Shown: one piece after another, positions 1,575 to 20,000 of the stretch
Layout: each line of letters starts with the position of its first letter
Position numbering within the stretch: the first letter of the stretch is position 1
Source: an uncultured virus (IMG/VR IMGVR_UViG_3300031963_011487)
Lineage: Duplodnaviria; Heunggongvirae; Uroviricota; Caudoviricetes
Strand: one strand, 5' to 3'
Length of the DNA stretch: 20,000 bases
Virus record (IMG/VR): IMGVR_UViG_3300031963_011487
Position numbers and translations under genes: made by a program
Notes under the pieces: model-generated
The model's database searches: none
What the model saw: the letters and a program-made list of their open reading frames with translations, nothing else
Told to the model about the DNA's origin: nothing

Positions 1575-2819
1575 ATGATTATTAGTAGTTACGTACAGTA
1601 TCAACAATTAATTCAACGTATAGATCGGGAGCAATGTATATTGATTCCGATTTTTCGTGACATACATCTGCATAGAAAAGAGAATAATATACTATGCATA
1701 GCAATTAGTTTTTTAGATCAAACATATATAATATCTATATCACACGAGGACGCCCCGTGTTTCTTGATTCCAGAGGGTTCGTATTTAACGTCAGATGACA
1801 TACAAACACTTGCCTACGTTAATAATATTCCACTATCTGAATGGGAATACTGTCCCTATATCGTTGATACACATAACCAGTTTTGGAATGTTACGGATGT
1901 AAACCGATTAATTCCGTTGTCGGTGTGGTCATCTGTACTAAAAAAATATGCAGAGAAACAATGGAAGATTGTAAATACAGTCCCGCAAAATGAAACCTAT
2001 GCGTCTACCGTAAGTATGATTAAAACATTACGGGAAATTGAAGATGCGGGAATCTGCGTGGATCGTAACGTACTCCAACAACATTTTGAATCTAAGACGT
2101 TACGTGCGTTTAAGAGTAATCTCGTTTATTCAGAATATAATCCATACACAACCACGGGTAGACCAAGCAATCGGTTTGGTGGGATTAACTTTTCTGCACT
2201 GAATAAATCCGATGGTACTCGTGATGCGTTTATCAGTCGATATGAGGAGGGTATATTGGTACAAATGGATTTTGAGGCATACCATCTCCGACTCATTGCG
2301 GATCAGTTTGATATTCCACTACCCAACACATCGTTACACACAGAACTTGCTAAAAAGTATTTTGGTACCGATGATATTACTGATGAATTGTATGCAATGA
2401 GTAAGCAAAAAACATTTGAGATCATGTATGGGATGTCTGATGAAACCTATGGCGTTCATCTATTTGAACGGGTAGTAGAATTACGGAAGTTGTTTCAGAC
2501 TACGACGGGAACGCTAGAACTACCCAGCGGAATAACAGTAGATTTCCCAGAACCAAACGCAAGTAAAATGTTTAATTATTATGTTCAATCGTTGGAAGTA
2601 ATAAAGACTTTACCTAAGTTACGTAAAATACTAGACTTATTAAAAACCACGCGGAACCACTTGATACTTTATACTTATGATAGTATCTTACTAGATATGG
2701 AACGATTTGATAAAGAATTACTTATGCAGATTGTTGCTATCTTAGAAGACAATAAAAAATTTCCTGTTCGTGTATATACGGGCACAACATATGGTAACAT
2801 TTCGGAGATACGGTTATGA
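1575..2819 (+). CDS. compact, divergent family A DNA polymerase-like protein
   Basis: EDAGICVD, TTTGRPS, motif A DFEAYHLR (2268-2291), motif B KQKTFEIMYG (2403-2432), motif C YTYDS (Asp codon at 2679). Only 414 aa. Confidence 0.85.
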   Translation: MIISSYVQYQQLIQRIDREQCILIPIFRDIHLHRKENNILCIAISFLDQTYIISISHEDAPCFLIPEGSYLTSDDIQTLAYVNNIPLSEWEYCPYIVDTHNQFWNVTDVNRLIPLSVWSSVLKKYAEKQWKIVNTVPQNETYASTVSMIKTLREIEDAGICVDRNVLQQHFESKTLRAFKSNLVYSEYNPYTTTGRPSNRFGGINFSALNKSDGTRDAFISRYEEGILVQMDFEAYHLRLIADQFDIPLPNTSLHTELAKKYFGTDDITDELYAMSKQKTFEIMYGMSDETYGVHLFERVVELRKLFQTTTGTLELPSGITVDFPEPNASKMFNYYVQSLEVIKTLPKLRKILDLLKTTRNHLILYTYDSILLDMERFDKELLMQIVAILEDNKKFPVRVYTGTTYGNISEIRL

Positions 2820-3676
2820 CATTTGAAATTGGTGTACTTGGATTGGGATACGTTGGGGGAACAGTAGCGCAAGCGTATCAACGAAAGAACGTTTCCATTC
2901 ACACGTATGATATTGATCCAAACAGAAATCCTACATGTGAAACGTTTGAAGAATTTTTGAATAAGGCAAATTTGATTTATGTTGCCGTGCCGACCCCGAT
3001 GACACGGGAAGGTGCGTGTGATACTCGGATCGTTGAGCAAGTGGTCCATGATTTGTGCATGACGGATCAGTCCAAAGTCATTATTATTAAATCGACTGTT
3101 CCGCCCGGTACCACGGAGAAGCTACAGGAACGGTACACCAATCACACCATACTATTCAGTCCAGAGTTTTTAACGGAAAGAAATGCATTAAGTGATTTCT
3201 TAAATCAGGAAGTCATGTTAATTGGAAAGTCTAAACGGGCTTCACAAGAACTTGCTGATTTGGCACTGAGTAGTCAGGCTAGTGTCACGGAGACAATACG
3301 ACTGGCTAAGGTGGTAGATGCCACAGTAGCAGAACTATATAAGTATACATCTAATTTATTCTTGGCAACCAAAGTATCATTTGCCAATGAAATGGCAGAT
3401 ATTGCAGCAAATGTCGGAGTGGAGTGGAATTCTGTGGAACGACTGCTTTTGTATGATACCCGACTAGGAAAGAGTCACTGGATGGTTCCTGGACCAGATG
3501 GTCATCGTGGATTTGGTGGTACCTGTTTTCCGAAAGATTTGTCTGCATTGATTAGTCACGCAGAATCCAATGGAGTTCCAACACCACTACTTCGTTCTGT
3601 CTGGAAACGTAATGTATTAGTAGATCGTCCCGAACGAGATTGGGAGCAAATGAAGGGACGTGCGGTGTCTGAATAA
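2816..3676 (+). CDS. ugd: UDP-glucose/GDP-mannose 6-dehydrogenase family protein (short form)
   Basis: GLGYVG Rossmann motif, VPTP, IKSTVPPGT, SPEFL, AELYKY (catalytic Lys), GFGGTCFPKD (catalytic Cys). 286 aa. Confidence 0.9.
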   Translation: MTFEIGVLGLGYVGGTVAQAYQRKNVSIHTYDIDPNRNPTCETFEEFLNKANLIYVAVPTPMTREGACDTRIVEQVVHDLCMTDQSKVIIIKSTVPPGTTEKLQERYTNHTILFSPEFLTERNALSDFLNQEVMLIGKSKRASQELADLALSSQASVTETIRLAKVVDATVAELYKYTSNLFLATKVSFANEMADIAANVGVEWNSVERLLLYDTRLGKSHWMVPGPDGHRGFGGTCFPKDLSALISHAESNGVPTPLLRSVWKRNVLVDRPERDWEQMKGRAVSE

Positions 3677-3740: not shown

Positions 3741-4142
3741 ATGGAATCAGACACACAGTTACTCTGTACATTTACAACTATTGAAGGAATTGATGCGACT
3801 ATAGAAGCAATAAAAGATTCCTATAAATTAGTATTTAATAAAGTTTATGTACTTGAAAACACCGAAGATGCAAATCAGTTGGTCTTGACATATAATGTAG
3901 CAAAGCCTACAGATGCAACGGTTACCCCACCACCGTCAACAATATCGGTTCATAGAAAAAAGCAAACGAATACCATTTACACGATTAATGCAATTAACAA
4001 ATTAATTGAAAGTAAAAATGGTGGGGTGTTAGACAAATCATATAAGATTGATTGGAATGAATTACAAAATATGGTACTGGTGACTGCCTACGGAAAACTA
4101 AAAATTGTAAATACTAAACTTGTAAAAATCATAGATCTCTAA
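3741..4142 (+). CDS. hypothetical phage protein
   Basis: 133-aa ORF filling the gap before the SSB promoter (LLCTF...SVHRKKQTNTIYTINAIN). Function not recognised. Confidence 0.8.
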   Translation: MESDTQLLCTFTTIEGIDATIEAIKDSYKLVFNKVYVLENTEDANQLVLTYNVAKPTDATVTPPPSTISVHRKKQTNTIYTINAINKLIESKNGGVLDKSYKIDWNELQNMVLVTAYGKLKIVNTKLVKIIDL

Positions 4143-11046: not shown

Positions 11047-11421
11047 ATGAAGGATAAGAAGGACTCGTTAAATAAAATAGAACAAAAGGTGTTTGATTTA
11101 TTAAAAAAATTACGAGTACAGTTTCAAACGCAAGTAAAAATTGATAAATATAATGTTGACTTTTTGGTAAACGATACATATATAATAGAGTGTTATGGAG
11201 ATTTTTGGCACTGCAACCCACAGAAATATAAACCCGATTATTTCAATCGCGGAAAGAAAAAAACTGCAAGAGAAATTTGGGAACGTGATTTGGAAAGAAA
11301 GAAACGGTTTGAAGAACTTGGGTATAAGTTTATAAACTTATGGGAATGTGATATACGCGATAACACTAAAAAAATAAAAACAAAATTAAAGAGATATCTT
11401 AATAGAGGTGGTTATGATTAA
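11047..11421 (+). CDS. Vsr/DUF559-like endonuclease
   Basis: VDFL..IIECYGDFWH, D..RK, GY.FI.LWECD pattern. Lys-rich protein in AT-rich DNA. Confidence 0.85.
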   Translation: MKDKKDSLNKIEQKVFDLLKKLRVQFQTQVKIDKYNVDFLVNDTYIIECYGDFWHCNPQKYKPDYFNRGKKKTAREIWERDLERKKRFEELGYKFINLWECDIRDNTKKIKTKLKRYLNRGGYD

Positions 11422-11788
11422 AGACATTACCATGAAAGAAATAACAGAAGGATTACCTAATCCAGATAATGATATACATTTACTTATGTTTTTTGGATCT
11501 AACTGTGGACCATGTAAAGCTACTATGCCACATTACGAAGCAGTTGCAAAATTTTACACAGAAAAACAATCTCGTATAAAATTTTATAGAATTAACGCAT
11601 GGGAACCGGTTGAACAGGCAACTTTTTGTAGTACTAAACTGGGTGTTAATGGAGTCCCAACCTTCAGAGCTTATTGTAAAAGTACACAATTTTCAGAAAA
11701 GGTTGGGGGTGGAGATGAAGAGATTCTAAAAAAATATATTAATGGTTTGATAGACGATGTATTTAACAAATTTGGAGAACGTATATAA
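11414..11788 (+). CDS. second thioredoxin-fold protein
   Basis: FFGSNCGPCK and GVPTF motifs. Start is ATG 11414 or GTG 11408. Confidence 0.85.
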   Translation: MIKDITMKEITEGLPNPDNDIHLLMFFGSNCGPCKATMPHYEAVAKFYTEKQSRIKFYRINAWEPVEQATFCSTKLGVNGVPTFRAYCKSTQFSEKVGGGDEEILKKYINGLIDDVFNKFGERI

Positions 11789-12207
11789 TGAAAGTAAAAA
11801 GGTTACATGAGCAAGCACAACTTCCTGTAAAAGCTCACGCAGGTGATCTTGGATATGACTTGTTCTCAAACAGTCAACTCACGTTGTTGGCAGGGGAAAC
11901 GAAGTTAGTTAGTACAGGCATTGCAATTCAATTTCCCGAAGGATATGGCGGACTACTACGGGATAGATCATCAGTAGCAACCAAGCGAGGATTGTTCGTC
12001 GTGGCAGGAGTAATTGATAACGGGTACACAGGAGAAATCTTAGTTGCACTTCATAACTCCAACGAGGGATTTCAAACCATCTATAAAGGTGATAAGATTG
12101 CACAACTCTTGTTGATTCCTACGGTTGATTTTCCCGTCGAAGAAGTTGAGGAAATATCTTCTAGTGATGGACGAAACGCAAATGGATTCGGCAGCACAGG
12201 GACTTGA
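11788..12207 (+). CDS. dut: trimeric dUTPase
   Basis: GYDL, RSS, GVIDNGYTGE, GDKIAQL, R..NGFGSTG (motifs I-V). Confidence 0.96.
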   Translation: MKVKRLHEQAQLPVKAHAGDLGYDLFSNSQLTLLAGETKLVSTGIAIQFPEGYGGLLRDRSSVATKRGLFVVAGVIDNGYTGEILVALHNSNEGFQTIYKGDKIAQLLLIPTVDFPVEEVEEISSSDGRNANGFGSTGT

Positions 12208-12227
12208 TCTTCAAGTCCCTTTGTTGT
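12198..12227 (+). terminator. perfect 10-bp hairpin over the dut stop, possible intrinsic terminator
   Basis: AGGGACTTGA-tct-TCAAGTCCCT followed by TTGTTGT. Confidence 0.6.
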
Positions 12228-12232
12228 ATATT
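12204..12232 (+). promoter_or_regulatory. sigma70-type promoter upstream of polB
   Basis: TTGATC (12204-12209), N17, TATATT (12227-12232). Confidence 0.55.
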
Positions 12233-12259
12233 ATATGATGGACCCTGTAACGAGATAAT

Positions 12260-14779
12260 ATGGCATATCAAAACATTTATATTGATTCACAATCAGATGA
12301 ACAAACTGCATATATTTGGGACGATAAACGGGGATTAATTACCTTACCGTTATCGGATTTTAATTATGCATATGTAAAAGATCCCACGGGAAAATATTTA
12401 AGTATGACAGGTGTACGTTTGAGTAAGACTCGCAGGTTTACTCGCGGGCATCCCAACGTATTTGAGAGTGATCTACCACGGGAAACTCGTATCCTAACTG
12501 ATCTATACTTGTACGAAGACACGCCGTCAGAAGGAAATATTGTATTGTTTTTTGACATTGAGGTGTCGATGACAAACGGTATTCCAGACATTCACAAACC
12601 AAATAATGAAATTACCTCTATCGCACTCTATGATCCAACGATAAAAAAATATACGGTATTGGTATTAGACACCGCAGAATTGTATGACAACAAATCCGTT
12701 GGTGATGCGGAAATCATTTTCTGTGCAAGTGAAGTGGAACTACTGCATGCTTTTATTACGGTGTATGAACAGATCCAACCCACGATTATTACGGGATGGA
12801 ACAGCAATGGATTCGACGTACCCTATCTGTATAACAGAGTACGGCAAGTGTGCGGACAATCGATTGCAAATAAACTCAGTCCTATTGGAAAGGTTAAATA
12901 TTCTGAACGATTGGAACGGTATGCCATTGCTGGCGTGAGTTCGTTGGATTATCTGGATCTGTATAAGAAGTTTACGTATACGCAGCAACCAAATTATCGA
13001 CTAGATACGATTGGTCGGTTGGAAGTGAACATGGGGAAGGTACCCTACGAAGGTTCTCTTGATCAACTGTTCCGTGACGATCTGGAAAAGTTTATTGAAT
13101 ATAACTTACAAGACGTGCGTATTATTGTCGAGATGGATAGAAAGCTCAAGTTGATTGAGTTGGTGCGTGGTATCTGCCATATCGGGCATGTGCCGTATGA
13201 AGATTATCCCATGTCATCACGTTTCCTTGAAGGCACCATCGTTACCTATCTTCACCGTAAGGGAATTATCGTTACAGATAAACCACAGTCGAATAAAGAG
13301 AAATCGGAAAACACGGGAGATGAGGACGGTAGTTTTACTGGTGCGTATGTAAAAGATCCTGTGCCTGGATTGTATGAATGGATTTATTCACTGGACTTAC
13401 AATCACTGTACCCATCGATCATCATGAGTTTGAATATCTCGCCAGAAACCAAGGTGGGCTACGTAAAGAATTGGGATCTTGAGCAACATTTAAAGAAACA
13501 AATTGTTGCGTACGTAATTCAAGAAAAAGATAATGATACGACGATGGAGTTGGGATATGACGCCTTCAACGAATTTATGCAAGAGAACAACCTATCCATT
13601 AGTTCCAACGGCGTCATTTATAATAATGATAAGAAAGGTATCATTCCCGAAGTACTTGAGACATGGTTTGCCCAACGTGTGGAATACAAGAATACCATGA
13701 AGAAGTATATCAATGAAGGCAACAAGGAGATGGCAGAATATTATGACCGTCGTCAACATATTCAAAAGATTTTCTTGAACTCGTTGTATGGTGTATTGGG
13801 GTTGTCCGTATTCCGTTTCTATGACGTAGACAATGCAGCAGCAGTTACCTTGTCCGGTCAAGATGTGATTAAAACCAGTGCCAAGTTTCTGAATCTCAAG
13901 TATGAAAAAATTACGGGTGATAAGAAAGATCACTGTGTTTACGTAGATACCGATTCCTTGTACTTTCCTGCGGGACCATTGGTTGAGGGTGCCGACGATA
14001 CGTTGAAAGCAACAATTGATCTTGCATATGGCGTAGAAAAAGAGTTAAACAGATTTTATGACTCTATGGCAAAACGATTATTTAATGTGAGTACGCACAG
14101 ATTCCATATCAAGGGTGAATCCGTTGCTCGTACAGGATTCTGGGTAGCGAAGAAACGATATGCACTGGATAAGGTATATGATTTGGAAACCAACCAGCCA
14201 GTAAATAAAATGGTCGTGAAGGGGTTGGATGTTGTCCGATCCTCATTCCCGAAAGCTTTCCGTGAATTCATGAAACAAGCACTGAATGATATTCTGAATA
14301 AGGTACCAAAAGATGAAGTAGATACAAAGATTCTGACGTTTAAGAATTCCTTAGATGATCGGGACTTCTTAGATATTGCACGAAACACATCGGCCAATAA
14401 CATCAGTGAATATACCTTACATGATACGCCCGGACTTCGTGCATTCAAGAAGGGTGCTCCTGCTCACATCAAGGCGGCAATCGTATACAATCGGTTACTG
14501 GAACACTTCAATATCACCAACAAGTATGAAAAGATTATGGATGGTGAGAAGATTAAATACGTCATGTTGAAGCCAAATAATCTCCAGATAGAAGCACTTG
14601 CCATTAAGGGATATCAAGATCCTCCACAAATTATTGAGATGATTAAACAATATATTGATACCAATGCATTGTTTGAAAACGAACTCAGAAATAAACTGGA
14701 TGATTTTTATACTGCACTTAACTGGGGAAACATTCCTACGGAAGTAAATCAAAACGCGTCCGAATGGTTCAGTTTCTAG
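12260..14779 (+). CDS. family B DNA polymerase with proofreading exonuclease
   Basis: Exonuclease motifs FDIE, GWNSNGFD, YNLQD. Polymerase motifs DLQSLYPSII, KIFLNSLYG, YVDTDS, KKRY, KGL. Confidence 0.97.
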   Translation: MAYQNIYIDSQSDEQTAYIWDDKRGLITLPLSDFNYAYVKDPTGKYLSMTGVRLSKTRRFTRGHPNVFESDLPRETRILTDLYLYEDTPSEGNIVLFFDIEVSMTNGIPDIHKPNNEITSIALYDPTIKKYTVLVLDTAELYDNKSVGDAEIIFCASEVELLHAFITVYEQIQPTIITGWNSNGFDVPYLYNRVRQVCGQSIANKLSPIGKVKYSERLERYAIAGVSSLDYLDLYKKFTYTQQPNYRLDTIGRLEVNMGKVPYEGSLDQLFRDDLEKFIEYNLQDVRIIVEMDRKLKLIELVRGICHIGHVPYEDYPMSSRFLEGTIVTYLHRKGIIVTDKPQSNKEKSENTGDEDGSFTGAYVKDPVPGLYEWIYSLDLQSLYPSIIMSLNISPETKVGYVKNWDLEQHLKKQIVAYVIQEKDNDTTMELGYDAFNEFMQENNLSISSNGVIYNNDKKGIIPEVLETWFAQRVEYKNTMKKYINEGNKEMAEYYDRRQHIQKIFLNSLYGVLGLSVFRFYDVDNAAAVTLSGQDVIKTSAKFLNLKYEKITGDKKDHCVYVDTDSLYFPAGPLVEGADDTLKATIDLAYGVEKELNRFYDSMAKRLFNVSTHRFHIKGESVARTGFWVAKKRYALDKVYDLETNQPVNKMVVKGLDVVRSSFPKAFREFMKQALNDILNKVPKDEVDTKILTFKNSLDDRDFLDIARNTSANNISEYTLHDTPGLRAFKKGAPAHIKAAIVYNRLLEHFNITNKYEKIMDGEKIKYVMLKPNNLQIEALAIKGYQDPPQIIEMIKQYIDTNALFENELRNKLDDFYTALNWGNIPTEVNQNASEWFSF

Positions 14780-14780
14780 T

Positions 14781-15296
14781 ATGTGGATGGGATTGGTGGC
14801 GTTATTACAAATAACAGAACCTACAGTACTTGATAAACCAATTCGTATGCCGTATAAGGTGAAACGGGATACGACAAAAAATTTCATTGTATTACATTAT
14901 GATGATAGTGATAGTTATTTAGGAACACGTAAATGGTTAATTAAAAAACGAAATAGTTATCATTATTACATTCAACGTTCTGGTGTAATTGTAAAGATGG
15001 TAGATCCGAAGTATCAAGCAAATCACGCAGGTGCTTCGTTGTGGAGAAGTTATCTTCGGATGAACAAGTATAGTATTGGTATTTGTCTAGAGAATAAACC
15101 TCCGCAACTATATACCGATAAACAATATAATAGTTTGGCGTGGTTAATTAAAGTATTACAAAAACGATATCCAGACTCCACAAGTCGGTTTATTCTTGGG
15201 CATTCAGACGTAGCAGTTCCTCGTGGAAGAAAGCACGATCCTGGTCCACATTTTGAATGGGAGAAACTTTTAAAACTTTTGTTGGGGGAAGCGTGA
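14781..15296 (+). CDS. N-acetylmuramoyl-L-alanine amidase (Amidase_2/AmpD-like)
   Basis: IVLHY, SYHYYI, ANHAG, SIGICLE, GHSDVA...RKHDPG (Zn ligands H/H/D). Confidence 0.9.
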   Translation: MWMGLVALLQITEPTVLDKPIRMPYKVKRDTTKNFIVLHYDDSDSYLGTRKWLIKKRNSYHYYIQRSGVIVKMVDPKYQANHAGASLWRSYLRMNKYSIGICLENKPPQLYTDKQYNSLAWLIKVLQKRYPDSTSRFILGHSDVAVPRGRKHDPGPHFEWEKLLKLLLGEA

Positions 15297-15297
15297 C

Positions 15298-15657
15298 ATG
15301 GGACTATTTGACGAAATCAGAGTAGAACATATATTACCGGGTAACACCGAAATTACCGATGAATGGTATCAAACGAAATCTCTTGAGAATGTCATGGGTA
15401 AGTATGTAATTTCTGCCAACGGTGAGTTATATGAAGAAAAGTGGCAGTGGGAATGGGTAGAAGAAAATACCCATTGGTTGGGTGGATACATGAAAAAAAT
15501 AGAAGGTAGTTATCATCGTGAGTACTTGACAGATTATCACGGAGATGTTAGATTTTATAAAGGTTCAAAGCCAGAAAACGGTAAATGGCGTGATTATTAT
15601 GTACGATTTACCGATGGGAAGTTATCAAAGATGTGGTACGTAGATAAAGACTATTAA
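15298..15657 (+). CDS. hypothetical phage protein
   Basis: 119-aa aromatic-rich ORF (MGLFD...YQTKSL...F.DGKL) starting 1 nt after the amidase stop. Confidence 0.8.
   Translation: MGLFDEIRVEHILPGNTEITDEWYQTKSLENVMGKYVISANGELYEEKWQWEWVEENTHWLGGYMKKIEGSYHREYLTDYHGDVRFYKGSKPENGKWRDYYVRFTDGKLSKMWYVDKDY
15526..15554 (+). promoter_or_regulatory. internal sigma70-type promoter upstream of the clamp operon
   Basis: TTGACA (15526-15531), N17, TAGATT (15549-15554). Both hexamers are identical to those of the recA promoter. Confidence 0.6.
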
Positions 15658-15678
15658 ACAATAAAGGGGTTAACGGTT

Positions 15679-16398
15679 ATGGAAAAGTCAAAGTTTGAAA
15701 GGTTTATTGGCAAGTATAATTTGGGTGGTTCGTGTGAAAGTGTAGTACTGAAGTCGGAAGGAAGTACGTTATCGGTACGTTCTATTTCCGACGATAAGAA
15801 TGTCTTGGGTGAGATCGTCGCATCCAGCATCAGTTTCCCAGAGGGTGAGTTTGGTATTTATGACACAAAGAAGCTCCGTTCTATCTTGAGTGTACTGGAA
15901 GAGCAACTAACCGCCACTGCTCAGACCAGTGGCGATAAGATTACTGCTCTTAATATTACTGACGGGTCTACAAAGACAACGTTCGTTCTTGCCGATCAGT
16001 CGGTGATTCCCACGGTTCCTGAGTTAAAGAAGCTCCCACCGATGGATTTTACAATTTCCCTTGATCCAAAGTTCGTAAATACCTTCATCAAGGCAAAGGG
16101 TGCGTTGAGTGAAGTGGAAACATTTACGGTCATGAGTGAAGGAAATGACAACACCGCATCTGTGGTTCTTGGTTATTCCTCCACAAACACCAACCGTATC
16201 GTTATCACTGCAACTACGAACACCGCTGTTCAGATGGAACCAATTAGTTTTTCTGCAAACTATCTCCGAGAGATTCTTTCTGCAAACAAGGAAGTAACGA
16301 ATGGTACTCTGGAAATCTCGTCAAAGGGTCTTGCCAAGGCATCATTTGAATTTGATGGGACAACCTCTACATACTACTTGGTACAAGTCAAGTATTAA
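15679..16398 (+). CDS. DNA sliding clamp, T4 gp45-like
   Basis: 239 aa, beta-rich, with EFGIYD..KL, L.ISSKGLA..F and YYLV patterns. Context between polB and clamp loader. Confidence 0.8.
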   Translation: MEKSKFERFIGKYNLGGSCESVVLKSEGSTLSVRSISDDKNVLGEIVASSISFPEGEFGIYDTKKLRSILSVLEEQLTATAQTSGDKITALNITDGSTKTTFVLADQSVIPTVPELKKLPPMDFTISLDPKFVNTFIKAKGALSEVETFTVMSEGNDNTASVVLGYSSTNTNRIVITATTNTAVQMEPISFSANYLREILSANKEVTNGTLEISSKGLAKASFEFDGTTSTYYLVQVKY

Positions 16399-16404
16399 TC
16401 GGTT

Positions 16405-17664
16405 ATGGAAATTATTAAAATACACACAAGTAACAAAGATAAGTTAGAGAACTTACTGAAGACTACGGTAATCCCAGGTGATTTCTGGGATTACACACTT
16501 CCGTATGAGTATGATTGGAAGAATCATGATTTTTATGATTTGACTTGTGAGCATTATACTGACCTGCCAGAGTTTGTGTGGTCCCCGTACTTGAAGCAAC
16601 GGTATCTGATTAATGTTATGGTGAAGAACCAGCAAGAAAAAGATATTTTACACAACGTACTTGGGATGAAAGAAAACAAAACAGGATATATTCATTATGA
16701 ACTGGAAGAAAATCCCCTTACCGATTATGAATATGAATACACCCATAAAATTCATCCAAAATATCCGTTATATGTTATTACCAAGGGTCGATGGCAACGT
16801 ACTCTTACGATTGACACGCTTGAGGACATGGGAGTAGATTTTCGTATTTGTGTGGAACCCGACGAATACGATAACTATGCAGCAAACGTAGACATAAAGA
16901 AGATTATCAAACTTCCAGAGAATTTCAGCAAACGAAAGCAGGGGAGTATTCCTGTTCGTAACTTTGTATGGCAACATGCAGTTGACGCTGGTCATAAGAA
17001 GCACTGGGTGATTGACGATAATATTCATTGGTTCTTCCGATGGAATAATAATCTCAAGAAGAAACTTCGTGATGGGGTCTTCTTTAGAATCATGGAAGAT
17101 TTCAGTGATCGGTATGAAAACTTGGGATTGGTTGGTTGTCAGTATGCGTCATTCGTACCAGCAACAGAACCAGGTCGTAGTCAGTTTATTAAAAATACCA
17201 GAGTGTATAGTTGCATTCTGATTAATCATGAACTACTGGATACGCGTCTGGAAGAACGGTGGAGAGGAACGTATAATGAAGATACGGATCTTTCCCTACG
17301 TGTATTGTCCACGGGTGATCTCTGCACCGTCAACTTTAATACGTTACTCAGTGGTAAGCAAACCACGGGAACGATGCGTGGCGGAAATACCGATACGATC
17401 TATGAAGGTGGTGTCTATTCTGGATATAAAAAGAAGTTTGATGAATTGAAAGAGAACTGGGGTAAGATTGTGAAGTTGACGCATGACAAGCACGTCGATG
17501 GTCGTCCACACCACCATATTGCTTATACAAAAATCTTTAAGCAAGACTTGGTATTGAAAGAGGGCGTGTCGTTAGAACCAAAGATTAATGAATACAATAT
17601 GATACTAACTAAGATGACAACCAACAGTACAAATGATGTTGCAACTGAACATGAAGATATCTAA
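16405..17664 (+). CDS. TAGT/GREB1-like GT-A glycosyltransferase (putative DNA base glycosyltransferase) with N-terminal extension
   Basis: KYPLYVITKGR, VEPDEY..Y, RNFVW, HWVIDDNI, NTRVYSCIL, WRGTYNEDTDLSLRVL, K..T..MRGGNT. Confidence 0.8.
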   Translation: MEIIKIHTSNKDKLENLLKTTVIPGDFWDYTLPYEYDWKNHDFYDLTCEHYTDLPEFVWSPYLKQRYLINVMVKNQQEKDILHNVLGMKENKTGYIHYELEENPLTDYEYEYTHKIHPKYPLYVITKGRWQRTLTIDTLEDMGVDFRICVEPDEYDNYAANVDIKKIIKLPENFSKRKQGSIPVRNFVWQHAVDAGHKKHWVIDDNIHWFFRWNNNLKKKLRDGVFFRIMEDFSDRYENLGLVGCQYASFVPATEPGRSQFIKNTRVYSCILINHELLDTRLEERWRGTYNEDTDLSLRVLSTGDLCTVNFNTLLSGKQTTGTMRGGNTDTIYEGGVYSGYKKKFDELKENWGKIVKLTHDKHVDGRPHHHIAYTKIFKQDLVLKEGVSLEPKINEYNMILTKMTTNSTNDVATEHEDI

Positions 17665-18337
17665 GAGATTTATTCGTACATGGCAGGGTGATGCTCCAAT
17701 ACCTCCGATGTTTGAGGAGTGGTGGCAGATGTTTCACGATATACATCCTGGATATGAGTTTATGACGATCACCGATTACGATCATTTACAAATTCCACCT
17801 GATATTAAAGACATCATGCAGTATATTACCACGTATTCAGGTATTTCAGATGTTATTAGGGCAGTGGCTCTTTACCAATATGGCGGTATTTACGTTGATA
17901 CAGATGTTATGCCTCTCAAAACATTTGAACCGTTGACAGAACTTGATAAGCCATTTGCTGCAAAAAGGTCATCTAAGTCATTTGAAGTTGCAGTCATGGG
18001 ATCTCCACCACAACATCCTGCAATGAAAGCAGTGTTGGATGCACTTCCGAATCACTGGAAAAAATATCACGATAAGTCTAATGCAGTATCTACGGGACCT
18101 GCATTTTTCTCCTCGGTTCTGTTTGGTCGCCCAGATGTAGTCCACCTTCCAACGAGTACATTTTATCCGTATAATGGATGGGGAGCACCGAGCCGTGAAG
18201 AAAAATTGAAAATTTTTGAAAACAAAGAAAACTTCCCGCCAGAGATGATTGCTGCACACTTCTCAAATCATACATGGGGTTCAAACAAAAATAGAAAAAA
18301 GTATATTCCTCCAAAAACTCATGATTGGTGGGAGTAG
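17651..18337 (+). CDS. GT32-like DXD glycosyltransferase
   Basis: W...HPGYE, SDVIR..ALYQYGGIYVDTD, TGP, FYPY and AAHF..TW motifs. ATG 17651 overlaps the upstream CDS. Confidence 0.88.
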   Translation: MKISKRFIRTWQGDAPIPPMFEEWWQMFHDIHPGYEFMTITDYDHLQIPPDIKDIMQYITTYSGISDVIRAVALYQYGGIYVDTDVMPLKTFEPLTELDKPFAAKRSSKSFEVAVMGSPPQHPAMKAVLDALPNHWKKYHDKSNAVSTGPAFFSSVLFGRPDVVHLPTSTFYPYNGWGAPSREEKLKIFENKENFPPEMIAAHFSNHTWGSNKNRKKYIPPKTHDWWE

Positions 18338-18343
18338 TTTAAA

Positions 18344-19561
18344 ATGTATCAATCATACTTTGACAAATTCCTAAACATGACTCCGTATCTAGAAATAGGT
18401 GCGGAGGAGTGGGAACATATAAAACAGACGTTCTCCGTAGACGACATTAAAGAAAGTATGGCAACGGTTTGTATGACGTATCCTATTCCTTATAATGATA
18501 TTACGGAAGAAGATGCATATCGTGGTTATATGGATTTAAAAGCAGTTCGTTGGGATAAATTATATACTGCTGGGGAATGGTTTTATAGATCCACGAATTC
18601 CCGTTATGAATTAAGTCCGTATTATTTTTCCAAGTCAACGACGGGTAATTCTGCGTCCAATTACTTCCAACAACAGAATCGGTGGGAGGCAAATTCTAAT
18701 CGGTCGCCTGGACCCGCTAAGACGTGGCGTACGAAGAGTACAATGATTACCTTGATGGGATCACTGTTTACATTAAAGGTTCCGAAAATTGATAAGGGAA
18801 CCTTACGGGGTTGTTTACATCTACGAAAGTATACCTGTTCACAGTTCCGACCCAGTACGGCAAAAGCACTGTATGATAAGTTTAACGCAAAGAATGTACT
18901 GGACTTTTCTATGGGTTGGGGTGATCGTCTTGCTGGATTCTATGCAGGGAATACAACCGAACATTATGTTGGGTTAGATCCAAAAGCAGATAATCATCCC
19001 ATTTATAACGCACAAAGAAAGTTTTATAATACACATACGACATTCTTTGAAAACGATAAAGAAAGTGAATTTCATATAAGTCCTGCGGAAGAATTTGATT
19101 TTAAACCATATACAAATCACTTTGATATGGTATTTACTTCACCACCGTACTTTAACGTAGAACATTATAGTCAAGACGACACCCAGAGTTTTAAACGATA
19201 TAAAGAAGTAGAAATGTGGAGTGAACACTTTCTCCACAAGGTATTGACTAACATCTATCCCAGTGTTAAATTACATGGTATAGTCGCCATTAACATTTCT
19301 GATGTATTTTCTACGTCTGGTAAAGGACAGAAACGTTGGTTAGAAATTACCAATCCCATGAATGATCATTTAAAATCATTAGGCATGGAATACATGGGAG
19401 CAATTGGTATGGAGATGGCGAAACGTCCGAATAGTGCAGGAGCAGGTATGGTGTTTGAAGGAAGTGCGCCAAACGAATGGACGGATGACGCAATGACTAG
19501 AGCAGATAATTCAAATAATAAAACATTCTGCGAACCGATTTTTATGTGGAGAAAAGTATGA
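18344..19561 (+). CDS. SAM-dependent amino (N4-C/N6-A) DNA methyltransferase-like protein
   Basis: QFRP..AK, motif I VLDFSMGWGDRL, YVGLDP, motif IV FTSPPYF (SPPY at 19139-19150), terminal EPIF.W. Confidence 0.82.
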   Translation: MYQSYFDKFLNMTPYLEIGAEEWEHIKQTFSVDDIKESMATVCMTYPIPYNDITEEDAYRGYMDLKAVRWDKLYTAGEWFYRSTNSRYELSPYYFSKSTTGNSASNYFQQQNRWEANSNRSPGPAKTWRTKSTMITLMGSLFTLKVPKIDKGTLRGCLHLRKYTCSQFRPSTAKALYDKFNAKNVLDFSMGWGDRLAGFYAGNTTEHYVGLDPKADNHPIYNAQRKFYNTHTTFFENDKESEFHISPAEEFDFKPYTNHFDMVFTSPPYFNVEHYSQDDTQSFKRYKEVEMWSEHFLHKVLTNIYPSVKLHGIVAINISDVFSTSGKGQKRWLEITNPMNDHLKSLGMEYMGAIGMEMAKRPNSAGAGMVFEGSAPNEWTDDAMTRADNSNNKTFCEPIFMWRKV

Positions 19562-20000
19562 ATGAAAATACGCTCTGGGTGGAGCGCTATCGACCGAGTA
19601 CATTGGAAGGATATGTAGGGAATGATACCGTTCGTGCCAAGATTGAACAGTATATCACCACGCAAGATATCCCTCATCTGCTGTTCTACGGAACGGCTGG
19701 CACGGGTAAGACCACTGCCGCCAAGATTCTCGTCAAGAACATTGATTGTGATTATATGTTTATCAATGCATCTGATGAACGTGGTATTGATACGGTTCGT
19801 GATAAGATCAAGGGATTTGCGGCAACGATTGGATTCAAGCCACTCAAGATCGTGGTATTGGATGAGGCAGACTTCTTAGGACGAGAAGCACAGCCTGCAC
19901 TTCGTAATCTGATGGAGGCGTATTCTGCGAGTACACGATTCATTCTCACTGCTAATTATGTAGAACGGATTATTGATCCACTGGTGAGTCGAACGCAGGT
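19558..20000 (+). CDS. clamp loader AAA+ subunit (RFC/gp44-like), 3'-truncated
   Basis: Not in the ORF track. Manual translation gives MNENTLWVERYRP...PHLLFYGTAGTGKTT...INASDERGIDTVR...LDEAD...ALRNLME...RFILTANY...SRT. ATGA overlap with the MTase stop. Confidence 0.95.
   Translation, partial: MNENTLWVERYRPSTLEGYVGNDTVRAKIEQYITTQDIPHLLFYGTAGTGKTTAAKILVKNIDCDYMFINASDERGIDTVRDKIKGFAATIGFKPLKIVVLDEADFLGREAQPALRNLMEAYSASTRFILTANYVERIIDPLVSRTQ

Follow-up and report, generated by a model that had tools for sequence, protein, structure and literature searches.

In the DNA of an uncultured T4-like water phage, the gap between the genes for the sliding clamp and the clamp loader is a variable islet for modifying enzymes, and in this lineage it holds two independent modules. 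The stretch analyzed (the window) comprises 20,000 nt of a genome known here from about 21 kb. The first module is a TAGT-family GT-A glycosyltransferase (TAGT) followed by a swappable second gene, and the second is a class I amino-methyltransferase (MTase). With about even confidence, we propose that these phages glycosylate their DNA in two steps near the replisome and that the outer sugar is diversified through gene swapping. TAGT would place the first sugar on the acceptor, and the exchangeable second transferase, a GT32 enzyme in the window and a TAGT paralog (TAGT2) in the closest relatives, would add or alter the outer sugar. The acceptor would be the phage’s own DNA, with modification taking place at the replication fork or shortly behind it, and exchange of the second enzyme would change the outer sugar or its linkage, the part that host nucleases and glycosylases see. 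The MTase, which carries an SPPYF motif, would work independently of the glycosylation pair. Sugar-coated DNA is a main means by which phages escape restriction enzymes and CRISPR nucleases.

An earlier note on this DNA had described TAGT, GT32, and an SPPY-type MTase as tightly packed between clamp and clamp loader, and this was confirmed by the open reading frames, their junctions and their family matches (Table 1). Read from the sequence, clamp and TAGT are separated by 6 nt, TAGT and GT32 overlap by 14 nt, GT32 and MTase are again 6 nt apart, and MTase and clamp loader overlap in an ATGA; the T4 counterparts of the flanking genes, 45 and 44, are direct neighbors in that phage. Between positions 14700 and 20000, neither promoter-like sites (17 vs. 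18.2 expected) nor terminator-like sites (3 vs. 3.1 expected) were commoner than in shuffled sequences, which is consistent with co-transcription of the clamp-to-loader genes without proving it. The phage is without a cultured close relative. The cassette DNA gave zero matches when searched against 50,697 phage records, the best match of its PolB was that of Microcystis phage Mel-JY01 (44.5%), and the nearest record to the window is a near-identical fragment of 21 kb (G001). NCBIfam held no family for the TAGT, GT32, or MTase of the window.

Table 1. Features of the clamp to clamp-loader region of the window.
Feature	Position	Strand	Evidence
gp45-like sliding clamp, 239 aa	15679..16398	+	phrog_223 DNA polymerase processivity factor, E 7.3e-13
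TAGT-family GT-A glycosyltransferase, 419 aa	16405..17664	+	PF20691 E 8.1e-38; phrog_842 E 3.5e-32
Replaced segment (last ~20 TAGT codons and whole GT32)	17603..18342	.	blastn vs. L002
GT32 (Gly_transf_sug, DXD) glycosyltransferase, 228 aa	17651..18337	+	PF04488 E 1.4e-11
GT32 C-terminal tail NKNRKKYIPPKTHDWWE, candidate clamp-docking peptide	18284..18334	+	invariant residues in alignment
Class I SAM amino-methyltransferase (MTase), 405 aa, SPPYF motif	18344..19561	+	PF01555 E 7.3e-4, below cut-off
gp44-like clamp-loader large subunit, cut at window end	19558..20000	+	phrog_168 E 2.9e-54; PF00004 E 5.3e-16

The first enzyme had been proposed to be a TAGT-type GT-A transferase, and its sequence upholds this: it is a confident member of the family with an apparently intact catalytic core. 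The match to PF20691 scored 130.8 bits (cut-off 27.5) and covered TAGT residues 120-327 and profile positions 1-205 of 205. An N-terminal alpha/beta domain (residues 1-119) precedes the GT-A core, which starts at residue 120, and the protein ends in a disordered tail (407-419). In an alignment of 23 sequences, D204, D205, and D293 were invariant and R129 and E292 nearly invariant. The core motif of the window enzyme (R129, D204-D205-N206, and E292-D293-T294, i.e., DDN...EDT) deviates at its third positions from the R...DDD...EDY/F motif given for the active site of characterized enzymes (Pyle et al., bioRxiv 10.1101/2023.12.21.572611); the TAGT2 paralogs carry DDD. Foldseek searches with a structure model of TAGT (pLDDT 80.7) returned TarP as the top solved fold (6h4m, E 7.8e-6), ahead of SpsA and further enzymes of the GT-A type; all of these being GT-A enzymes, they inform the GT-A part of the protein only and not its N-terminal domain. 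TarP was also the top PDB match reported for phage GT-A enzymes shown to glycosylate 5hmC in DNA (bioRxiv 10.1101/2023.12.21.572611). Searched by sequence against solved structures, TAGT and MTase gave no match at E up to 1. The N-terminal domain is lineage-specific. The fold searches did not identify it, its neighbors in an Atlas search were small viral hypothetical proteins with scores at chance level (0.81-0.83), and hhalign comparison with the small ORFs that lie upstream of TAGT reached a probability of 56% for locus L036 and 31% for locus L037, a lead at most.

TAGT is a conserved resident of the gap between clamp and clamp loader. Of 28 close viral loci, 22 show the order clamp-TAGT-...-clamp loader, and three more, cut by contig ends, are consistent with it; in three (L023, L024, and L026) clamp and clamp loader are absent near TAGT. 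The association with replication genes recurs across replisome types, since TAGT adjoins the Pol III beta and alpha genes in L037, sits between primase and PolA in L036, and is present, unannotated, between the clamp loader and dUTPase/polymerase genes of Vibrio phage henriette 12B8. In Vibrio phage 1.076.O, TAGT lies between portal and head-morphogenesis genes.

The gene that follows TAGT occupies a swappable slot, which may hold GT32, a TAGT paralog or nothing. When the window was compared by blastn with its closest relative, L002, positions 11132-17602 aligned at 87% and 18343-20000 at 92%, with nothing between, and exactly at the position of the window’s GT32, L002 carries TAGT2 (L002:11221-12111; PF20691, E 1.9e-24). 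Among related clamp-context loci, just four carry GT32, namely the window, the G001 record, L086, and L087. In the TAGT tree, the window pairs with the TAGT2-bearing L002 (97/94), and the GT32-bearing L087 belongs to a clade (100/98) in which the remaining four members lack a second transferase, its nearest relative being L027 (89/78); these placements indicate at least two separate slot events. GT32 in the window is a recent replacement of a different type of transferase, and the exchange is in effect an experiment of nature that sets GT32 against a TAGT paralog in otherwise near-identical phages. The order in L086 is TAGT-GT32-FkbM methyltransferase (TIGR01444, E 2.3e-18)-MTase, and we take the FkbM family to comprise sugar O-methyltransferases.

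GT32 scored 45.3 bits against PF04488 (cut-off 23), and in alignments of 11 and 20 sequences D83 and D85 were invariant and T84 invariant or nearly so; an alternative in-frame ATG exists upstream at 17633, and homologs begin at the 17651 start. A DXD region above the Pfam cut-off and a conserved D-T-D thus ally the protein to the GT32 family (Och1-type mannosyltransferases), but its subfamily is set apart by being linked to TAGT and, at 46% identity or more, confined to phage or metagenome contigs. It is distant from the GT32s of 78 cellular loci (21-35% identity in the longer alignments and at most 50% in short ones). A TAGT gene lies within about one gene of GT32 in six of six viral and 13 of 13 metagenome loci (52-64% identity; the 19 include at least three duplicates across collections) and in none of the 78 cellular loci, all of them distant relatives. 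Adjacency in all 19 loci that are at least 52% identical makes an initiator-plus-extender reading reasonable. Judged from these sequences, TAGT and GT32 are a real pair and are predicted to be functional partners, and the earlier view of GT32 as the partner of the first enzyme gains support. The pair also occurs in small phages, among them a complete phage of 32 kb (G007), and there it is located immediately upstream of terminase and structural genes.

The MTase is likewise an independent resident of the clamp/clamp-loader gap, drawn from a very large phage family whose members also sit in this gap where glycosyltransferases are missing. The window protein falls below the PF01555 cut-off (20 vs. 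26.7 bits) and a homolog at L054:448-1683 reaches 27 bits; many of the 3208 homologs carry PF01555 in precomputed annotation, some are labeled RsmD by one source, and 27 of the 30 nearest Atlas clusters are PF01555. S266-P267-P268-Y269-F270 and D187..G191-W-G-D-R were invariant in all 29 sequences aligned. The model (pLDDT 83) has a class I MTase fold with Z scores of about 15, and many ties at 14-15, including the amino-MTases Trm11 and TrmN, mean that no target class can be read from the fold. It is probably a phage-specific DNA N4-cytosine or N6-adenine methylase acting alone; DNA is the substrate predicted from its context, a clamp-MTase-clamp loader order without TAGT in L054-L056. A single pathway can be envisaged in which an MTase-like enzyme readies the acceptor on an exocyclic amino group and both transferases then build a glycan on it. 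The tight coupling and overlaps of the window genes would suit such a scheme, and in L055, where a 2OG-Fe(II) oxygenase comes after the MTase homolog within the clamp/clamp-loader gap, there is a hint of N-methyl oxidation in some phages. However, we consider a single pathway highly improbable given that 13 clamp/clamp-loader-context loci of an HD-gene clade, and L007 as well, have TAGT but not the MTase, that the MTase occurs without TAGT in L054-L057, that none of the small-phage loci with the GT32-TAGT pair shows a window-type MTase, and that G002-G004 contain no oxygenase. The same distribution does not bear out the idea of one three-gene cassette put forward in the earlier note: the trio does not co-occur in relatives, GT32 being restricted to the four loci named above.

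To our knowledge, the solved cases of DNA glycosylation all begin with a hydroxylated pyrimidine supplied by a ThyA or TET relative. A search for ThyA (PF00303) found it in none of five records (G002-G006), none of a further five that include the complete 32-kb phage (G007-G011), and none of the five records G013-G017; the same search recovered it from four of five named TAGT phages. PF00145 and PF13640 were each found in none of five. A genome search for Tet_JBP (PF12851) was likewise negative in five of five, but its positive control was also silent, so that this result carries no weight alone and reliance is placed on Pfam scans of ORFs and on PF13640. The Pfam scan of G003 (215 ORFs and 8 boundary ORFs) detected no ThyA, TET/2OG, C5-MTase, or TGT/QueC family. 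The relatives appear, by these sequence searches, to be without every known enzyme that readies a DNA base for sugar, and a hydroxymethylpyrimidine acceptor finds no support: neither G002 (76% complete) nor G003 (90% complete) has genes for a ThyA-family enzyme, a 2OG oxygenase, or a C5-MTase. It could nonetheless be supposed that a classical pathway operates, and that 5hmC, 5hmU, or 5-hydroxy-C comes from a ThyA- or TET-type enzyme that is encoded elsewhere in the genome, too divergent, or supplied by the host. Only about 21 kb of this phage or of the near-identical record is known, neither G002 nor G003 is 100% complete, the Tet_JBP search had no working control, many G003 ORFs have no family, and ThyA-family genes do accompany TAGT in four of the five named phages. 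Against this, none of the 15 records searched, each either related or carrying the pair and one of them a complete genome, yielded a ThyA-family candidate, G003 has neither a C5-MTase nor a 2OG oxygenase of any Pfam family, and the ordinary route to dTMP is encoded, with ThyX and a dCMP deaminase in G003 and dUTPase in the window. We regard a classical pathway as improbable. A short adenylosuccinate-synthetase homolog in G003 raised the possibility of a Z-genome; its match to PurA (E 5e-57) is closer than those to PurZ (E 7e-26 and 5e-18), it is absent from G001, G002, G004, and G012, and a Z-genome was rejected as an explanation.

It is also conceivable, if somewhat unlikely, that TAGT and GT32 modify something other than DNA, such as a phage or host protein, a teichoic-acid-like or envelope polymer or a small molecule, and that the replication locus reflects early co-expression only. 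GT32 enzymes, and GREB1, an animal relative of TAGT, act on glycans, lipids, or proteins. TarP, the best solved fold match, glycosylates poly-ribitol-phosphate, and the relatives have no known acceptor-making enzyme. G003 encodes two glycan clusters with about ten glycosyltransferases, and glycans for non-DNA targets are thus plainly made in the lineage; the head-gene context of TAGT in Vibrio phage 1.076.O and the position of the small-phage pair just upstream of terminase and structural genes point in the same direction. A non-DNA target is, however, hard to square with the way TAGT repeatedly neighbors genes for the clamp, its loader, primase, and polymerase across three unrelated types of replisome or with the phage-only distribution of the coupled GT32. 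None of PF20691, PF04488, and PF01555 is a membrane-protein family, and the phage TAGT/GT-A enzymes cited as characterized, in those parts of the two sources that were available, all act on DNA (PMC13216743; bioRxiv 10.1101/2023.12.21.572611). Features that count against a DNA-glycosylation reading as such are the lack of an acceptor-making enzyme, the many other glycan genes, the non-replicative TAGT contexts, and the DDN...EDT motif.

Two-step glycosylation of phage DNA, the reading preferred here, has precedents from which the window departs. The T2/T6 beta-glucosyl-HMC-alpha-glucosyltransferase shares with the window the PF20691/phrog_842 family, a GT-A fold and a two-enzyme scheme leading to a DNA disaccharide, the T6 TAGT adding a second glucose on DNA, but in T2/T6 the TAGT acts second, after a GT-B alpha-GT and on 5hmC derived from a ThyA homolog (PMC13216743). 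Here, TAGT is the conserved member, paired with GT32 or with a second TAGT, and the searches detected no hydroxymethylase. Pfam scans of the window genes and of G003 detected no alpha- or beta-GT families, and the sequences have diverged so far that among the 25 matches listed for tblastn from the window TAGT or TAGT2 there was no Escherichia (T-even) record. The GT-A DNA glycosyltransferases that Pyle et al. associate with 5mYOX(TET) or ThyS resemble TAGT in their GT-A fold and in having TarP as the top solved match, in the extension of the glycan by secondary transferases, and in neighbors that include gp45/clamp, ParB, and methyltransferases (bioRxiv 10.1101/2023.12.21.572611). They differ in that the secondary transferases are GT8-like rather than GT32, in the DDD...EDY/F motif, and in that the characterized clusters contain a C5-MTase and a 5mYOX, neither of which was found in the window’s lineage (bioRxiv 10.1101/2023.12.21.572611). 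Orphan TAGTs have already been flagged in print: a solitary TAGT is recorded in 288 of 753 phages (PMC13216743) and about 65% of GT contigs stand alone (bioRxiv 10.1101/2023.12.21.572611), with function left open in both. The window’s clade may be among these published solitary TAGT or GT-A contigs. The locus offers a compact, testable case, with a conserved putative initiator beside the clamp, a phage-only GT32 coupled to TAGT and a complete 32-kb phage without a known acceptor pathway, and the identity of the acceptor would reveal either a new DNA modification chemistry or non-DNA targets of this enzyme family in phages.

A more specific proposal, which we rate as unlikely, is that the pair glycosylates DNA on an acceptor that does not derive from a thymidylate-synthase- or TET-type enzyme and does so while docked to the clamp through the GT32 tail and/or the N-terminal domain of TAGT. 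Such an acceptor might lie on a canonical base (e.g., at an exocyclic amine) or in the backbone, or an unrecognized enzyme might supply a precursor, and if true this would represent a new DNA glycosylation chemistry across T4-like and small tailed aquatic phages. A 2004 study reportedly demonstrated binding of the T4 alpha-glucosyltransferase to the gp45 clamp. This enzyme has been described as acting together with the replisome (PMC13216743). The likeness of the window to such a DNA sugar transferase tied to the clamp consists in the placement of its genes between clamp and loader and in the aromatic tail of GT32. The T4 enzyme differs in its GT-B fold and in being encoded elsewhere in the genome, and clamp binding in the window phage is a candidate property only. 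The basic...WW tail of GT32 is a lead, a candidate clamp-docking peptide recognized from its residues: all 11 GT32s of the tail-bearing group share K216, Y218, W226, and W227 without variation, the three members with known gene context (the window, L086, and L087) are all T4-like, and the tail is missing from the seven small-phage GT32s compared. An aromatic pair within the last six residues is rare: in relative G003 it is present in 3 of 215 ORFs, and one of these three is the homolog of the replication-module ORF at 1170-1574. PolB in the window’s clade terminates in (E/D)(W/F)F(S/A)F.

The window comes from an uncultured T4-like phage and carries its replication module, with genes for gp32-like, RecA/UvsX-like, FEN/RNase H, DnaB-like helicase and class II RNR proteins, two thioredoxins, dUTPase and a family-B polymerase. 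After these come an Amidase_2 gene and a small ORF, then the clamp (gp45-like) and the clamp loader (gp44-like). Among cultured phages the closest polymerase, at 44.5%, belongs to Microcystis phage Mel-JY01, and no entry in the phage record collection shared DNA with the cassette. The junctions described by the earlier note at the clamp/clamp-loader gap (6-nt gap, 14-nt overlap, 6-nt gap, ATGA overlap) were identical on re-reading, and promoter-like and terminator-like sites around the cassette showed no excess over shuffled sequence. Cell-wall enzyme genes also sit within the module: that for Amidase_2 (N-acetylmuramoyl-L-alanine amidase; 14781-15296, E 6.6e-27) begins after a 1-nt gap from the polymerase, and the window opens with a VanY-type D-Ala-D-Ala carboxypeptidase domain (1-1173). 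A Vsr/DUF559-type endonuclease-fold gene (11047-11421; PF18741, E 4.9e-12), flanked by the two thioredoxin genes, is kept in relatives.

Genes under study in the clamp/clamp-loader gap and their profile matches
Gene	Coordinates	Match
1, TAGT	16405-17664	PF20691, 130.8 bits (cut-off 27.5); phrog_842; confident
2, GT32-type enzyme	17651-18337	PF04488, 45.3 bits (cut-off 23)
3, methylase	18344-19561	N6/N4 methylase profile, 20 bits (below cut-off 26.7)

An IMG/VR scan with TAGT as query returned 37 loci. Where TAGT identity was at least 64% (28 loci), clamp lies upstream and clamp loader downstream in 22; three loci end at contig edges in an order compatible with clamp-TAGT-clamp loader, and the remaining three (L023, L024, L026) belong to a different phage type with no clamp nearby. 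TAGT is followed by a second paralogue, TAGT2 (291-297 aa; PF20691, E 1e-22 to 1e-25), in L002-L008, of which L007 has no methylase; the methylase comes directly after TAGT in L009-L011 and L027, and the group L012-L022, L025 and L029 lacks a second transferase as well as a methylase. Methylases of 53-55% identity also occupy the gap without any TAGT in L054-L056 (clamp-methylase-...-clamp loader). The earlier note had treated the three genes as one cassette, which these arrangements contradict; since the neighbours of TAGT vary and the methylase occurs without it, the gap is a hot spot in which separate modifying modules are mixed. A single pathway using all three products, however closely their genes adjoin in the window, is highly improbable.

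Between clamp and TAGT, loci with upstream flank in the group without second transferase and methylase (L012-L016, L018-L022, L025) have a gap of ~700 nt, filled by a 222-224-aa ORF in the five read (L012, L015, L016, L019, L025). The L012 ORF (L012:4089-4754) has a weak HD-domain match (PF01966, E 0.0095) and matches phrog_28876, a metal-dependent phosphohydrolase (E 1.8e-6); a Pfam search with its L019 counterpart gave zero matches. It is possibly a nucleotide-pool enzyme tied to modification.

Relatives of the methylase make up a very large phage family (3208 full-length proteins, the best 120 at 52% identity or more), and in 29/29 homologues the SPPYF motif and D..GWGDR SAM motif are invariant. 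In the Atlas the methylase falls among viral clusters of PF01555; its model (pLDDT 83) resembles class I methyltransferases in general (Z ~15), with many ties, Trm11/TrmN included. In T4-like phages without TAGT, the gap contains two tandem SPPY paralogues (L054:448-2882) or a methylase with a 2OG-Fe(II) oxygenase after it (L055:1011-2866); several more 2OG oxygenase genes are found downstream.

Comparison with the closest relative, L002 (TAGT 98%, methylase 95% identical), reveals a precise exchange: DNA homology stops at 17602 and restarts at 18343, and 740 nt with GT32 in the window replace ~895 nt with TAGT2. On the TAGT tree the two are paired (support 97/94) within the group that carries TAGT2. 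A second locus with GT32, L087 (clamp-TAGT-GT32-methylase-clamp loader), falls in a clade (100/98) in which the four remaining loci lack a second transferase; L027 lies closest to it, at weaker support (89/78). As the window and L087 lie in different groups, GT32 has been gained or lost from this slot at least twice.

TAGT lies within about one gene of GT32 in 6/6 viral loci (GT32 identity 52-59%), all small tailed phages with ERF, RusA, NinG, ParB_N and terminase genes, and in 13/13 metagenome loci (52-64%), at least three of which duplicate viral loci; the one GT32 to depart from this, 32% identical, has a GT4 gene after it. At 78 bacterial and archaeal genome loci, where GT32 relatives are distant (21-35% identical over longer aligned stretches), no TAGT was detected within 8 kb (HMM, 0 matches among 3210 ORFs), the same HMM finding TAGT in 17/21 phage loci, with two of the four misses being genes cut at contig ends. 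The phage record collection held no GT32 relative above 30% identity, the best (27-30%) being in actinobacteriophages. In L086, a further GT32 locus, an FkbM-family methyltransferase (1086-1820; TIGR01444, E 2.3e-18) lies between GT32 and methylase; FkbM enzymes usually methylate sugars, so this insertion fits a glycan-building logic. The post-methylase position expected for the clamp loader (L086:3024-3443) holds another ORF that weakly matches a kinase-type PHROG (E 9e-4).

The C-terminal tail K..Y......WW is invariant in 11/11 GT32s of the window's subgroup and absent from the seven small-phage GT32s compared; the three tail-bearing enzymes with gene context seen (window, L086, L087) are all from T4-like phages. 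The tail is a candidate for docking to the clamp. Polymerases of the window's clade end in (E/D)(W/F)F(S/A)F, and an aromatic pair within the last six residues occurs in 3/215 ORFs of G003, a near-complete relative. A 134-aa ORF without assigned function in the replication module (1170-1574) ends in ...YLEYWFSEE, resembling the polymerase EWFSF, and is kept in G003 (L043:12801-13205) as YWFAEEV; its C-terminus makes it a possible further clamp client.

In an alignment of 23 TAGTs, D204, D205 and D293 do not vary, and R129 and E292 hardly do. The motifs of the window enzyme are DDN and EDT; characterised phage GT-A enzymes are reported with DDD and EDY/F, and TarP is the top match for 5hmC-DNA glycosyltransferases (bioRxiv 10.1101/2023.12.21.572611). 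TarP is likewise the best solved match (E 7.8e-6) of the GT-A core in the AlphaFold model (pLDDT 80.7). An additional alpha/beta domain occupies residues 1-119; it is found in the window's clade and one distant locus (L031) and has weak profile similarity to small ORFs directly upstream of TAGT (hhalign probability 56%, L036; 31%, L037).

We are evenly poised on the reading in which DNA glycosylation is linked to the replisome, TAGT acting as initiator and an exchangeable enzyme as extender. DNA is suggested as the target because, across three unrelated replisome types, TAGT repeatedly adjoins genes for clamp, clamp loader, primase and polymerase, because the phage family members cited as characterised in the source portions available all act on DNA, and because the T4 alpha-GT is reported to work with the replisome (PMC13216743, in part). 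Arguing against DNA, or leaving the target open, are the variant core motifs, the non-replicative contexts of TAGT in L023, L024, L026 and Vibrio phage 1.076.O, the many other glycan genes of G003 and the missing acceptor pathway. An acceptor other than DNA for both transferases is in our judgement unlikely.

In the accessible sections of three papers (PMC13326640, PMC13390438, PMC13216743), established routes to glycosylated phage DNA all begin with 5hmC, 5hmU or 5-hydroxy-C, which homologues of thymidylate synthase or 5mYOX/TET enzymes produce. The earlier note had proposed scanning the rest of the genome for TET, hydroxymethylase or C5-MTase genes; in relatives and pair-bearing phages the scans came back empty. 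ThyA was found in 0/15 related or pair-bearing records, including G002 (146 kb, 76% complete), G003 (164 kb, 90% complete) and G007, a 32.4-kb phage whose genome is complete, bears terminal repeats and has the order GT32-ParB_N-TAGT; the same search detected ThyA in 4/5 named TAGT phages. A Pfam scan of the G003 ORFs (215 + 8 boundary) and G007 ORFs gave no ThyA, 2OG oxygenase, C5-methylase or 7-deazaguanine genes, and PF00145 and PF13640 were each found in 0/5 close records; these absences describe relatives and pair-bearing phages, the window's genome being known for ~21 kb. This evidence leaves out the Tet_JBP genome search, for which no control worked. An ordinary dTMP route is encoded (ThyX and dCMP deaminase in G003, dUTPase in the window). 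A classical hydroxylated pyrimidine made by an unseen gene would match the established routes and is, set against these counts, quite improbable.

The glycan genes of G003 form two large clusters (L040:16244 to L041:15724 and L044:4881-12472) with about ten transferases. Among their genes are those for two GT2, two GT4, GT11, GT25 and two GlcNAc-transferases, for FkbM methyltransferases, and RmlA-like, 4,6-dehydratase, DegT, PseB-like, PIG-L, GNAT and DUF1599 genes. G003 also encodes ribosomal protein S21, ClpP and, beside a metallophosphoesterase, a short (342 aa) adenylosuccinate synthetase homologue (L041:16277-17302) that is nearer PurA than PurZ and absent in the records G001, G002, G004 and G012. 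In the window, a nucleotide-sugar dehydrogenase gene (2816-3676) sits in the replication module with a PolA-like ORF on one side and gp32 on the other; its UDP-glucose 6-dehydrogenase-like product (286 aa; TIGR03026, E 1.2e-53; phrog_9148, E 1.6e-52) has NAD-binding and central domains only, the UDP-binding C-terminal domain being missing. The ORF after it (3741-4142; 133 aa) has no family match, and the pair is kept in G003. The dehydrogenase could provide the TAGT and GT32 transferases with a uronic-acid donor.

The T6 TAGT linkage is beta, so TAGTs are inverting, and GT32 enzymes are retaining; on this basis, GT32 in place of TAGT2 would change the anomeric linkage or the identity of the outer sugar. 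In T4, a stereospecific host glycosylase discriminates such linkage differences, according to the portion available of PMC13216743. Orphan TAGTs and GT-A genes adjoining gp45/clamp, ParB and methylase genes are already published (PMC13216743; bioRxiv 10.1101/2023.12.21.572611; both in part). What appears to be new is the obligate, phage-only TAGT-GT32 pairing, the exact GT32-for-TAGT2 replacement in near-identical phages and the conserved GT32 tail, no published description of which was found in a literature search that was not GT32-directed and had supplementary tables outside it.

The cultured Vibrio phage henriette 12B8 (L072; 107 kb) has a TAGT homologue (record 21361-22206; 38.6% identity, E 7e-45) in an unannotated stretch between clamp-loader genes and dUTPase/DNA polymerase genes, and could be an experimental system for TAGT.
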